Source: an uncultured delta proteobacterium
GTDB lineage: Bacteria; Desulfobacterota; Binatia; UBA9968
Length of the DNA: 64,000 bases
NCBI GenBank assembly: GCA_963745035.1
Contig: CAVUVW010000005.1
Location: 32,001-96,000 of the forward strand
Direction: 5' to 3'
In this document: piece by piece, positions 25,246 to 30,181 of the stretch
Layout: each line of letters starts with the position of its first letter
How positions within the stretch are numbered: position 1 is the stretch's first letter
Translations under genes and position numbers: made by a program
Notes under the pieces: generated by a model
The model's input: only the letters and a program-made list of their open reading frames with translations
The model's database searches: none
Told to the model about the DNA's origin: nothing

Positions 25246-25267
25246 TTGCCGCTATTTGTCACTGATC

Positions 25268-25300
25268 GAACTGGCCGCCACGCGCGGCCAGTTTCGTTTC
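25268..25300 (+). terminator. Hairpin after thiC
   Basis: AACTGGCCGC/GCGGCCAGTT stem followed by TCGTTTC. Confidence 0.55.
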
Positions 25301-25343
25301 GGGTGCTTGTTCAGTTCGGCAGAACCGGCGCTCTGTTCCCTCA

Positions 25344-25866
25344 ATGGATAAACCGAAACGAATTTTGCTTTACGGGTTCGGCCCATATCAAGAATTTCGC
25401 GACAATATTACCGCACGAATTATCCAAGTCTTTGCCGCCGAGATCCGGAATGAAGAAAATTGTGTTTCCGGTGCGCTTCCAACGGCGGCAGTTTGTCGAT
25501 GCGATCACGCGATTCAAGCCGAAGATCATTCTTGGCCTAGGACAGAGCTCGCGCCGGAGGATCGATGTGGAAGCCCAAGCGGTGAATCGGCGACGCGGGC
25601 GCGGAACGGATCGCTCGAAAGCGATCTCGCCGCGCGGGCCGGAAACCCTCAAAACTACTTTAAAATTGGCGGCCGGACGTAAAGCCGGGCGATCATCCGA
25701 TGCCGGAGACTACGTCTGCAATTTTTCGATGTATGTGATGCTCGATCACATCCGGCGCGAAGGTGCGGATATTCGGTACGGATTCATTCACATCCCGCAC
25801 GACTACGATTTAGAGAAGGCCGGCAAATTGATCGATAGGATTCTTCGGCGCTGCCGTCGAGTTTAG
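25344..25866 (+). CDS. Pyroglutamyl-peptidase I (C15) family protein (indels in the 5' part)
   Basis: ILLYGFGPY...N, IILGLGQ, VEAQAVN, DAGDYVCN, GFIHIP. Confidence 0.82.
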
Positions 25867-25888: not shown

Positions 25889-26758
25889 TCAGCTCGTCAG
25901 CCGCTTGAGCGCCTCGCGGTATTTTTCTTGGGTTTTTTTCACGATTTCCGGAGGCAGCTCGGGCGGCGGCGATTTCATGTCCCACGGCAGATTGACCAGG
26001 TAGTCGCGCACGAACTGCTTGTCGAAGCTGTCGGGCGTCTTTCCCGGATGGTAGCCATCAGCGGCCAGAAGCGCGAGGAGTCGGGCGTTAAGACTTCATC
26101 GATCAGGATGATGTCGTCGCCTTCGATGCCGAACTCGAACTTGGTGTCGGCGATGATGATGCCTTTTTTCTCCGCGATTTCTCGGGCGCGGCTGTAGATT
26201 GCGACGGTCGCGTCGCGCATTTTCTCTGCCCGTTTGCTGCCGACTTTGGCTGCCATCTCATCGAAGGTGATGTTGACGTCGTGAGCGCCGACCGGCGGCT
26301 TTCGTCGAAGGGGTGAAGATCGGCTCGTCCAGACGCGATGCTTCCACCAGTCCCTTCGGCAGCGGAATGCCGCACACCGAACCGGTCTGCTGATAATCTT
26401 TCCAACCCGAGCCAACCAGATAGCCGCGCACGATGCACTCCACCGGCGCCGGCAGGCTTTTCTTCACCAGCATGGTGCGACCTTCGAGCTTCGCGCGATG
26501 CGGCTGGCAAGCGGCCGGAAATTTGTCGACGTCGGTAGTGATCAGATGGTGGGGGATGATGTCTTTGATCACCTCGAACCAGTAAACGGACATCTCGGTG
26601 AGAATTTTCCCCTTGTCCGGGATCAAGGTCGGGAGAATCACGTCGAACGCGGAGATGCGATCGCTGGCGACCAGAAGGAGCCTGTCCCCAAGGTCGTAAA
26701 TGTCACGCACCTTACCGCGATTGAACAGCTTCAAACCGGAGAGCGTTTCTTCAGCCAT
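25889..26758 (-). CDS. purC: Phosphoribosylaminoimidazolesuccinocarboxamide synthase (two indels)
   Basis: [44 protein letters not shown]. Confidence 0.96.
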
Positions 26759-26831
26759 GACTAAGCCTTAATAGGTTTTGTTAAGAACGGTTACTCCAGC
26801 GTGGGATACACGCCGGTTTAGAACAAGCGGA

Positions 26832-27179
26832 CTAGAGCAGTGCTTTGACTTCGGCTTCGTTAAAACCGGTCAATTTTTTTTTGCCTTTGATGATCACCGG
26901 CCGCTTGAGCAGATTCGGGTCTTTGAGCATGAGCTTGATCGCCTCATCTTTGGACGGCGGTTTCTGCTTCATGTTCTTTTCGCGGTAGAGCGGCGTCCGG
27001 GTATTCAGAAAAGGCTCGATGGGATCGTTGCCGATGATGTCGCGCAATTCTTTTTCGGTAAATGGGTTCTTGCCGTACTCTCTTTCGTCGAAATCGACTT
27101 TCTTCGATTGCAAGAAACTTCTTGCTTTACGACAGGTCGTTCACGTTGCTTTGTAGATGAACTTCAATTTATCGGCCAT
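26832..27179 (-). CDS. ArsC/Spx/YffB-family thioredoxin-fold protein; candidate selenoprotein (UxxC)
   Basis: ATG at 27179 with GAGG SD; MADKLKFIYKAT-TGA-TTCRKARSFLQ...PNLLKRPVII; the TGA sits at the first Cys of the family CxxC motif. Confidence 0.8.
27110..27140 (-). promoter_or_regulatory. Candidate bacterial SECIS hairpin
   Basis: After the UGA: ACGACCUGUCGUAAA GCAAGA-AGUU-UCUUGC; 6-bp stem, G-containing apical loop about 21 nt from the UGA. Confidence 0.55.
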
Positions 27180-27189
27180 CGTCGACCTC

Positions 27190-28573
27190 TTACTTGAAAA
27201 ACTTCGCGACCCGCTCGAAGGCATCGGGCTCGATCTCGTTGCGCACCGGCCATTCGCTTTTCGATTTCAGCGGGATGGTCGCGTCGATGATCGCAACCGT
27301 ATCGCCGAGCCAGCCGCGGAAGCTCTGCACCTCGCGGATAATCTCGATGTCCTTGTCCCAGTGGACGCGCGTAGCGACCGCCCACATGACTTCCCGTTCG
27401 TTGAAGACGTCGACGTCGTCGTCGACGATCACCGCCAACTTTAGATTCGGCATTTCCACAAACGCCTGCATGCCGGCCTTGTTGGGCTCGTTTTCGAATT
27501 CCTTCTTGATCGAGATGTAGCAGATGCAGCGGCCGCAGCCCGACGGGGGAAGATGAATTCCCTTGATGCCCGGGACGTTTTTCTTGATGACGTTATAGGT
27601 GCTGCCTTCCTTGGGAATGCTGCCCAAGTTCCAGTGATCCATGTGCCCCGGCCAAAAATCTTCGACGATGCCGCCGCGGCGATGGGTGATCGCGGTCACC
27701 TCGATAACCGGCACGTCCATTTTCGGCTGAGCGTAGCCGAGGATCTCGCCGAAGGGGTTTTGTGACTGGCGCACGCCGGGAAGAATTTCGCCTTCGATGA
27801 TCACCTCGGCGTCCGCGGGAACCATGAATTTATCGCCCCATGTCGTCGATGGGGTGAGCCGCAGCGGTTCCTTCAGAAACGCCGAGGCGGTCAGATAGTC
27901 GTTGTTGCCCATCGCCGTCATGGCGCAGGAGGAGAGATAAAATGCCGGATGATGGCCCAGAATAACGATCACCGGCGCGCGCAGGTTTTTGTCCTCATAC
28001 TCGCAAGCCATGGCTTCAAGGTGGTGGTGCTTGTGCGCCGAGAAGCTCATGTGCCTGGGATCGTGAAACTTGTTCTTCGTGAACGTGATGTCGTAAAACT
28101 CCGCGTCGAGGCCTTTCATCGCGCAGGTCATGGTGTGATAGGGGCCGGCGTCGCCCTTTTGATGCATCGGCATCGGCAGCACTCGAAGATCGGCCTTGTC
28201 TCCGGTGAGGACGACTTCCTTGACCGGCGCTTTCTCCGGCGCGATCACCTGTACACTGCCTTTTTGCTGCTCGAGCTTGGCGACTTCGAGACTCACCTCC
28301 ATCGGGGATTTGATGTCGCCCATGTCGAGCGAATCGGCGACGTACTGGCGCGTGACCCACGGGTTGTAGAACATCGGAAACTCGGACTTCTTGCCGTTCA
28401 GCGCGGGGACGTTCTCGAACAAAACCATCTTGGGCTCATTGCGCACGTCGAGATGTTTCAAATAGGCGACGGTCTCGTAATTGTTGGCGTCGATGAAATT
28501 TTTCTCGCGGATGACGGAGCCTTCTCGTTTCGCCCCTTCCTGGGCGATGAAGCTCGGCAGATCTTTAGGCCAT
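27190..28573 (-). CDS. UbiD-family (de)carboxylase-like protein (indel just after the start codon)
   Basis: KDLPSFI N-terminus, VLFENV, APVKEVV, LPMPMH..DAGPY, VPADAEVIIEG, NPFGE, IVDDDVDV...VMWAVATR. Confidence 0.88.
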
Positions 28574-28650: not shown

Positions 28651-30181
28651 TCAGCCGCCGGCGAGTCCTTTTAACGCGCGCAGCTTATGGCGCCAGCCGG
28701 TATGGCAAAGCAGGTTCAGAAGGTGACGCACCTGATGCGCCTTCTTCGCTGTTGCGGGATACCACGGGAATTCTTCTTTGAGGCCGAACTTGTCGGTGAC
28801 GACGGTTTTTTGCTGGCAGAACTTGCGGATGCCTTCGGCGCCGTGGCGGTAGCCGAAGCCGCTGTCTTTGCGCCCGCCCATGGGCGCGTCGGCGACGATG
28901 AATGCGCACGAGGCTGTCGTTGATGCAGACCGAGCCGCTTTGCAGCCCCTCGGCCAATAGTTGGGAGAGCGCCGCGTCGCGGCTAAACACCGCGGCGCTG
29001 AGGCCGTAGCGCGAGTCGTTGGCCAAGCGCAGCGCTTCGTCGGCGTCGTCGACTTTCACGAGGGGAATGATCGGGCCAAAAGTTTCTTCGCTCATCACTT
29101 TCATCGAGTGGTCGACGTCGACGAGCACGGTGGGCTCATAGTAATAACCCGGCAGATCCGGACGGCGCCGGCCGCCGGTGAGCGCCTTGGCGCCGCGCGC
29201 AACCGCTTCATCGACCTGGGCCGCAACCTTTTTCAACTGCTCTTCCGAGGTCATGCAGCCGATATCCACGGTATCGGCGCTCGCGCCTTGCTTGATCGCG
29301 CGGACGCGCTCGACGACCTTGTCGACGAAAGGTTGATAAACCGGCGCCTCCACGTAGACGCGCTCGATGGAGGTGCAGATCTGGCCGCTGTTCATTAAGG
29401 CGCCCCACACGCAGGCGCCGGCGGCGCGATCGAGATTGGCGTCCTTGAGGACAATCATGGGATCTTTGCCGCCGAGCTCGAGAGAAACCGGCGTGAGCCG
29501 CTCGGCGGCACGGCGCATGACCATTTTCCCCGTTTCCACGCTGCCGGTGAAGGCGATCATGTCGGCGCAATCGACCAGCGCTTCGCCGGTAGCGCCGTAG
29601 CCGATGACGACTTGAAGGAGGTTTTTCGGAAAGCCCGCCTTGGCCGCGATCTCCGCGCCGAAGATCGCCGAAAGCGGCGTCAATTCGGACGGTTTGATCA
29701 CGACCGCGTTTCCCGCCATGAGCGCCGGCAGGGCTTCGCCCAAGGTCATCGCCAGCGGAAAATTCCACGGGCTGATGATGCCGATCACGCCGCGCGGCGC
29801 GTAGCTTGAAACGACTTTTTTGGCTTTGAGAAGGGGAAAGTGCGGGCGGATCTTCTCTGGGCGGAGAAAGCTCGAAGATTTCTTGGCCCAGACGCCGACG
29901 GCGTCGCAGAGATAGAAGAGCTCATTGCCGTAGACTTCCGCGCGTGGACGGCCGGTCTCCGCGGTCAAAATTTCGGCGAGTCTCTCGCCTTCGTCGAGCA
30001 AGAGATCGCGCAATCTGTAAAGCGCGCGAGCGCGCTCCGCCAGACTGGTTTGGCGCCAGCCGATTTGCGCTTCGCGGCCGCGCTCCACGGCCAGTCTTAC
30101 GTCAGCCGGTGATGCGACCGGCAGCTCGGCTATTTTTTCCAGTGTGGCGGGGTTACGGACGACGATTGAGTCAGCAGTCAC
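28651..30181 (-). CDS. Aldehyde dehydrogenase (frameshift near 28905)
   Basis: ISPWNFP, KPSE, FTGS, LELGGKDP, GQICTS, EETFGP; the C-terminal GGRKDSGFG lies in another frame. Confidence 0.92.

Follow-up and report, generated by a model that had tools for sequence, protein, structure and literature searches.

Is the TGA at positions 27141-27143 on the minus strand of the 64,000 nucleotide stretch of DNA analysed here (the window) a stop codon, or is it decoded as selenocysteine (Sec), and if so in what kind of protein? At this locus the list of open reading frames holds only a frame of 93 amino acids (26832-27113) started by TTG. A preliminary description of the DNA attributed this late start to the in-frame TGA, and translation of the minus strand bears that out. 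The frame that runs from the ATG at 27179-27177 to the TAG at 26834-26832, i.e., the coding sequence 26832-27179, has the TGA as its sole interruption, at codon 13, and its read-through product is of 115 amino acids, starting MADKLKFIYKAT-U-TTCRKARSFL..., where U stands for the TGA. Six nucleotides separate the ATG from a Shine-Dalgarno-like AAGAGG (27186-27191), read directly from the sequence, which overlaps the TAA stop (27192-27190) of a UbiD-like gene on the same strand. The TGA stands in a T-U-T-T-C-R-K-A motif and is aligned with the first Cys of a CxxC pair, the equivalent of C10 of Spx; the second, C16, has its TGT codon at 27132-27134. Further on is a SECIS-type hairpin, GCAAGA-AGUU-UCUUGC (27110-27125), with a 6-bp stem and a tetraloop that has G second and U third, and it is in the 3′ arm of this hairpin that the TTG (27111-27113) used as a start by ORF callers, with its 93 amino acid product, is located. 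A re-reading of the sequence found the coordinates, peptide, motif position and hairpin of the preliminary description all to be right. Judged on comparative sequence evidence, the TGA-containing gene is very probably, at about 0.93, a genuine selenoprotein gene.

How well is the TGA conserved? Matches turned up in 28 of 41 genomes from the same order, and 27 are strong (65–99% identity, the gene's own genome included); the 28th is weak and glutaredoxin-like, and is not among the 27. Every one of the 27 strong orthologues has exactly one TGA and it is always codon 13. In a second collection the TGA is in 30 of 30 close loci, 15 of which are identical to the earlier loci and 15 new. A class-wide draw gave matches (E 1e-10 or better) in 154 of 401 genomes. 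In it the order's two families account for 45 genomes out of 63 and 22 out of 27, and their listed rows all have one TGA, the exception being one half of a frameshift-split copy, whose other half carries the TGA. This ArsC/Spx-like branch is thus present in 67 of the 90 sampled genomes of these two families, and also in much of a neighbouring family. With 60 further loci added, comparison of orthologues for TGA versus TGY comes to a total of 93 distinct copies with TGA and 23 in which this codon is TGC or TGT, though as the genomes counted are kin these numbers overstate independence. The 93 include two from genomes flagged as unpublished (L019, L081), on which no claim rests, and four extra ‘Cys’ pattern matches at other places in the loci proved spurious and are left out of the 23. 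That Cys is encoded at the aligned codon in 23 homologues upholds the placement, in the preliminary description, of the TGA at the first Cys of the family's C-x-T-C-R-K-A motif.

For a bacterial SECIS element the distance from UGA to apical loop is 16–37 nt, according to the available text of PMC10778597. What was looked for, drawn from that text and the figure legends of PMC2398784 and PMC1794560, was a stem-loop just after the UGA, with that spacing and with a conserved G in the loop. The hairpin has these features: its arms are GCAAGA (27125-27120) and UCUUGC (27115-27110) with the loop AGUU (27119-27116) between, the stem begins 15 nt and the loop 21 nt from the UGA, and G is at the second loop position. 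For the ‘SECIS-like hairpin’ of the preliminary description, sequence, spacing and loop G therefore stand, but folding energy as evidence does not, since Cys-form homologues fold equally. The mean energy for +9 to +48 is -10.7 kcal/mol in Sec copies (n=57) versus -11.4 in 18 TGC copies and -11.2 in two TGT copies, and that of a 66-nt stretch here is at chance level (z = -1.15; 25 of 200 shuffles fold equally well). Because the folding energy is not above chance, the case for the hairpin rests on comparison with relatives.

What does that comparison reveal? Of the 93 Sec copies 88 have the exact motif GCAAGA[AG]GT[TC]TCTTGC at +18, as does none of the 23 Cys copies, and the loop is always AGUU, GGUU or GGUC. 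In all 27 orthologues codons +6 to +10 (GCA-AGA-AGT-TTC-TTG) are each a single codon, while the other sense codon columns from -9 to +30 have 2–10 codons each, even where the amino acid is invariant; Cys copies encode the same A-R-S-F-L mostly as GCG-CGN-AGC-TTC-CTG. Four of the five Sec copies that depart from the exact motif keep a stem. Two of them (L040 and L041), whose 7-bp stems carry an AGUUU loop, are set apart from one another by a compensatory G-C/A-U pair, another (L098) has a compensatory change of A-U to C-G, and in L108 the stem includes a G-U pair. The fifth, L150, has one stem mismatch, which counts against the hairpin reading. A covariation count over the 89 Sec rows of alignment A1 found three of eight tested pairs invariant and two-sided change in only two. 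The six core pairs are nearly invariant (one compensatory cell, one G-U), and the two outer pairs are confined to the clade that is sister to that of the window gene. As the stem hardly varies, the near absence of covariation is uninformative rather than negative, and with it and folding energy both weak, the structural argument is sequence invariance plus a handful of variants. An Rfam scan of 26950-27250 (E up to 10) returned no SECIS family, only two chance matches. The SECIS of Escherichia coli fdhF has a GGUC-type apex closed by A-U.

Two further observations touch on the hairpin. A genome-wide scan for long frames broken by a TGA that is followed by a 6-bp stem with an RGUY loop returned the selenoprotein locus and eight others, and as these eight are noise-like, with peptides that look to be wrong-frame, it was rejected as a selenoprotein finder. 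Separately, A-R-S-F-L-R in GC-rich codons makes a hairpin of its own, GCGCG...TGCGC, and this is possibly a SECIS remnant, by analogy with the kind drawn in a figure legend of PMC1794560.

Can the organism insert Sec? The preliminary description pointed to the Sec machinery as where to look, and the genome does hold selA, selB, selC and selD, all on one contig (C17). There selA, selB and selD are adjacent, the SelB wing domain is found, and the tRNA-Sec has the anticodon tca. selD itself has one in-frame TGA, and that UGA is followed by GUGCA-AGUUU-UGCAC, whose A-AGUUU-U apex resembles that of the hairpin in the ArsC/Spx-like gene. In the relatives tested, every one of 28 Sec-form genomes yielded selA, against 16 of 23 Cys-form genomes, and the seven without it are each at least 90% complete. 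In a tree of 114 copies, the clade that holds the window gene is well supported and its 61 rows are all Sec; the sister clade has 30 Sec and 23 Cys, and needs at least eight Sec/Cys switches, of which well-supported branches alone force only two. With each such switch the exact hairpin sequence and selA tend to go too. The repeated switching in the sister clade is a clean natural data set on the requirements of SECIS elements and their decay.

Might the TGA nevertheless be a true stop, the product being the 93-residue protein from TTG 27113, and the conserved nucleotides a ribosome-binding region? It is how the ORF list has it, 119 of the 120 best database relatives are N-terminally truncated, and the TTG does fall inside the invariant stretch. 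However, the 93-residue form is without strand 1 of the fold and the entire UxxC/CxxC motif, and at the protein level the 12 codons upstream of the TGA, with the T-T-C-R-K after it, are conserved while varying synonymously. The F, Y/F, K and T codons before the TGA keep their amino acids in the 27 orthologues (KF[IY]YK.T), as do the five codons from TGA to hairpin (T, T, C, R, K), while third positions vary around the TGA (TTC/TTT, AAA/AAG, ACG/ACC/ACT, TGT/TGC, CGT/CGC/CGA). A start codon sought between TGA and hairpin was not found there. Also against a stop, the Cys-form homologues are full length with none at this codon, and the invariant stretch is a stem with compensatory variants that is lost exactly where TGA becomes TGY. 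A true stop is, on this evidence, very improbable. Neither is a reassigned code the explanation, since TGA is the commonest stop in the genome, where it ends 980 of 2121 open frames of at least 400 codons. An error of sequencing or assembly, or a recent pseudogene, has in its favour several 1-nt indels in the assembly of the window. purC is split into two frames, the UbiD-like gene has one extra base after codon 2, and two independent assemblies have a 1-nt difference from the window at 26810. But these defects are, as the preliminary description had it, indels and not substitutions, and the TGA is in 93 distinct copies, so that what would be needed is a systematic artefact common to all assemblies. 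Independent contigs have it also: at 27141-27143 the letters are the same in a contig of 2401 nt from rhizosphere DNA (run X1, record 4; 14 differences in 773 nt), in one from a soil DNA run of another study (X9, record 21; no differences over 27114-27223, TGA included) and in an RNA-library contig (X15, record 9; one difference, at 27028, over 26956-27223). A further contig (X17, record 15), with two differences from the window, was left out of this support. The chance of an error or of a recent pseudogene is close to negligible. Two RNA runs are without cover over the first part of the stretch.

To which family, then, does the selenoprotein belong? Its assignment to ArsC/Spx, made from the sequence at the outset, has held. 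The protein passes both Pfam ArsC PF03960 (E 2.5e-19; 69.8 bits versus a cut-off of 24) and NCBIfam TIGR01617 (arsC_related, named Spx/MgsR family; 89.6 bits versus 75.05), and a structure model built on 82 aligned family members (mean pLDDT 86.4) has an ArsC-type thioredoxin-like fold that is like that of Spx. In the model a strand of residues 5-9 is followed by a helix of residues 14-25, which puts U13 at the helix N-terminus. The best structural match in the PDB is Spx (1z3e_A, TM 0.82), followed by ArsC-family proteins that are uncharacterised, along with YffB, and after these by E. coli ArsC (TM 0.69); the top 16 matches listed, TM 0.70–0.82, are all Spx, ArsC-family or YffB chains. By sequence also, it is Spx proteins that stand nearest among solved relatives, E 1.9e-15 (3l78) to 5e-13. 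Invariant in both Sec and Cys forms are K10, U/C13, C16, R17, A19, R33, L45, N89, L90, R93 and P94. The column for C16 is invariant in an alignment of 82 rows (A2), its codon alternates between TGT and TGC among orthologues, and it is likely to be the resolving Cys of the UxxC pair. The YffB/ArsC-family reductases (PDB 1rw1, 3gkx, 3fz4) resemble the window protein in fold, in size (TM 0.73–0.78) and in being of uncharacterised function; a difference is that it scores 52.4 on the YffB model NF008107, where the cut-off is 121. YffB-type proteins are not known to have the second Cys of the CxxC pair.

Could it be a Sec version of an Spx/MgsR-type regulator, with U13-C16 as redox switch, that binds the RNA polymerase alpha subunit's C-terminal domain? 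The best matches by sequence and by structure are, as described, to Spx, and the model that is passed bears the name ‘Spx/MgsR family’. The likeness to the Spx of Bacillus subtilis and Streptococcus (1z3e, 3l78) extends to C/U-T-[ST]-C-R-K-A-R at the same position (UTTCRKAR here and CTSCRKAR in Spx), to a TM of about 0.8, and to R61 which keeps R60 of Spx. U13-x-x-C16 aligns with C10-x-x-C13, so that the N-terminal CxxC redox centre which the available text of PMC2801614 gives as a feature of Spx is present, with Cys10 replaced by Sec. However, identity to Spx is 28–33%, and the Spx subfamily and equivalog models score below their cut-offs (subfamily NF002459, 72.1 versus 123; NF009210, 53.3 versus 159; NF009885, 51.4 versus 152). 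In the sequence alignment G52, which in Spx is required for alpha-CTD binding, is Pro53 here, and K62, which like R60 is needed for activation (both from the same part of PMC2801614), is Pro63, with two residues missing just before its loop. The window protein ends where the C-terminal tail of Spx begins. Finally, Spx is described in that text as conserved among Gram-positive bacteria, while the lineage of the window is labelled deltaproteobacterial/Binatia. Such a regulator is on balance unlikely. A glutaredoxin-coupled arsenate reductase with Sec as its catalytic nucleophile would accord with membership of Pfam ArsC, with the match to E. coli ArsC folds (TM 0.69), and with the name ‘arsenate reductase’ that some JGI entries give to relatives, but the arsenate reductase models are far from being reached (TIGR00014, the arsC equivalog, 48.1 versus 106.05; NF007456, 17 versus 242). 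The neighbours are the UbiD-like gene, an aldehyde dehydrogenase and purC, with no ars genes, and the invariant second Cys suggests an Spx-like dithiol-type mechanism; canonical ArsC works with a single Cys. This makes arsenate reduction distinctly unlikely.

For the selenoprotein reading, how may synthesis and function proceed? The ribosome would start at ATG 27179, SelB with Sec-tRNA(Sec) would bind the hairpin at 27125-27110, with its apical loop AGUU, 15 nt past the UGA, and Sec would be handed to the ribosome at the codon 13 UGA. We infer both the insertion at UGA and the SelB binding from the features described. The expected product, of 115 residues, belongs to the ArsC/Spx family and has a thioredoxin fold; U13 is predicted to stand at the N-terminus of helix 1, and C16 to follow one turn on. 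Being one helix turn apart, the two are expected to alternate between selenol/thiol and an intramolecular selenenylsulfide, with U13 as attacking selenolate and C16 as resolving thiol; this is by analogy with CxxC proteins of thioredoxin fold, which cycle via a disulfide. The most likely role of the putative enzyme is that of a small selenol-based oxidoreductase or a redox relay.

Is the identity of the upstream gene a clue to the substrate? The UbiD-family decarboxylase gene (27190-28573, minus strand; Pfam UbiD and UbiD_C) stops 10 nt short of the selenoprotein ATG. The true start of this UbiD-family gene is the ATG at 28573-28571, after which is the 1-nt insertion in the assembly, and its protein scores 213.6 bits on TIGR00148, below the cut-off of 244.85. 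A UbiD-like gene adjoins in 45 of 54 distinct loci with at least about 1.5 kb of upstream flank, and in two of the nine loci without an adjoining one it is about 2.2 kb off (G032, G037). The two genes stay paired across an order of soil bacteria, at identities as low as about 65%. Their junction is spanned by contigs from two RNA libraries. As contigs cannot prove one transcript, and DNA may contaminate RNA libraries, this is a weak hint of the probable co-transcription, in this clade, of the selenoprotein gene with that of the decarboxylase. Of the 39 genomes of the order, 36 hold a UbiD-like orthologue (at least 65% identity). In nine nearly complete genomes it is present while the selenoprotein gene was not found with the query used, and so the decarboxylase is not dependent on the selenoprotein. 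In the sister clade, where the neighbours differ, and in the loci without a UbiD-like gene, a search with Pfam of 18 frames found no shared context. The link is real as synteny, and not obligate. A dedicated redox partner of a decarboxylase of the UbiD family (prenylated-flavin type), one that, e.g., keeps a thiol for the active site or for cofactor maturation reduced, is a doubtful proposition; if true, it would link a selenoprotein to a UbiD enzyme for the first time.

Are selenoproteins of this kind new? The statement in the preliminary description that ArsC-like ones had been noted only in metagenomic surveys was mistaken, as both PMC1794560 and the supplement of PMC5029168 give sequenced organisms. 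The former reports ArsC-like selenoproteins in Desulfotalea psychrophila and Desulfuromonas acetoxidans, and among the rows consulted of its Table 3, which covers 18 selenoprotein-rich organisms, ArsC-like is named only for Desulfotalea and Desulfuromonas. The latter's supplement counts 14 sequenced organisms for ‘Arsenate reductase 2, UxxC’ and 12 for ‘Arsenate reductase-like (UXXC-containing)’, with ArsC absent from its main text as available. An ocean survey had 42 sequences of ‘Arsenate reductase 2, cd03032, UxxC’ (PMC2398784), and a 2022 review lists ‘Arsenate reductase-like protein, COG1393, UxxC’ (PMC9312934). ArsC-like UxxC selenoproteins are, then, already known, and from the available parts of these sources have been in print since 2006–2008, from genomes and metagenomes alike. 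The ArsC-like and ‘Arsenate reductase 2’ families of Zhang and Gladyshev share with the window protein an ArsC/Spx-type thioredoxin fold, UxxC, and an in-frame TGA with a bacterial SECIS downstream. The window protein has the UxxC motif and Spx-type similarity, the comparison with ‘Arsenate reductase 2’ (PMC2398784) being by description only. Those families are, as described there, from Deltaproteobacteria and marine metagenomes, whereas the branch studied here is from soil MAGs, with close relatives labelled as MAGs of Deltaproteobacteria, Syntrophobacter(aceae), Thermodesulfobacteriota or Candidatus Binatia. It seems, from published families compared by description and not by sequence, that this branch of ArsC-like selenoproteins is unrecorded.

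Annotators do recognise the kind, as NCBI has one curated model for an ‘ArsC family (seleno)protein’, the NCBIfam entry NF041106 (ArsC_rel_Se_1). However, the window protein scores 35.1 bits on it, below the cut-off of 85, and of five relatives from other branches three score 31–39 bits and two (L092, L036) have no match at E 1e-6 or better. The branch is therefore without a curated selenoprotein model, which fits its truncated database entries: of the best 120 database relatives, 119 lack the N-terminus (118 are of 93–96 amino acids and one is of 101). A whole ArsC/Spx-like branch is stored publicly as 93-residue fragments without the active site, and while the biological significance is modest, annotation is the practical point and its correction, along with the data set on Sec/Cys and SECIS, the main use. 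A model built on full-length Sec and Cys forms would mend the entries and enlarge the selenoproteomes of these soil lineages by one family. Where the truncated entries are given a name it is ‘Spx/MgsR family transcriptional regulator’ or ‘arsenate reductase’. The sole full-length entry of the 120 (P0002), which counts against the selenoprotein reading, is 85% identical and, from the protein record alone, has Cys at the position of U13.

The genome to which the window belongs has a further gene of interest in this regard, selD (contig C17:318816-319742), which is a selenoprotein itself, with the motif G-U-A-A-K. The start of its hairpin, GUGCA-AGUUU-UGCAC, is about 30 nt past the UGA, and the apex is similar to that of the hairpin in the ArsC-like gene. 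A stretch resembling the Sec-form hairpin in sequence, GCGCGAAG(T/C)TTCTTGCGC, has been kept by some of the sister-clade homologues with a Cys codon at the motif position (L115, L118 and L037), and these stretches are likely to be SECIS remnants after Sec-to-Cys conversion.

Among the relatives whose selA was surveyed, three Cys-form genomes have the gene truncated (G748 and G700) or in two parts (G740), as would be expected if the Sec trait were decaying there. One Sec-form genome, G715, likewise has a split selA, where the split may be an assembly error. In a genome of the same genus, G743, the ArsC-like gene itself is in two pieces (C29:32614-32959), one comprising residues 1-46 with the TGA and the other residues 33-115, the break being due either to a frameshift in this copy or to an indel in the assembly.

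What of the other interrupted frames in the window? The UbiD-like gene, upstream of the selenoprotein gene on the same strand, has at 28565-28573 (minus strand) an ATG (28573-28571) with GGAG upstream of it, followed by GCC and then TAAAGATCTG. As its orthologues begin M-A-K-D-L-P-S-F at the same place, comparison with them shows the frame to be broken by one extra base after codon 2, because of which the gene is called late, at a TTG, and given 423 aa by the ORF lister as against about 465. Further upstream, the 498-aa aldehyde dehydrogenase frame (28651-30181, minus strand) ends in an Arg-rich nonsense tail, and what looks like the true C-terminus is in a second frame, 28651-28881 on that strand, so that another indel is probable. 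The minus-strand purC (SAICAR synthetase; 25975-26758) is in two overlapping frames, 26258-26758 and 25975-26415, matching profile positions 2-120 and 122-200 respectively, and looks like a case of either a 1-nt assembly indel or a pseudogene. At position 26810, within the spacer from the selenoprotein gene to purC, two independent metagenome contigs, from a rhizosphere run (X1) and a soil run of another study (X9), have one base fewer than the window. The plus-strand pyroglutamyl-peptidase gene (Peptidase_C15; 25246-25866) is apparently also spread across two frames, with MDKPKRILLYGFGPY... in frame 25344-25682 and the rest in 25246-25866.
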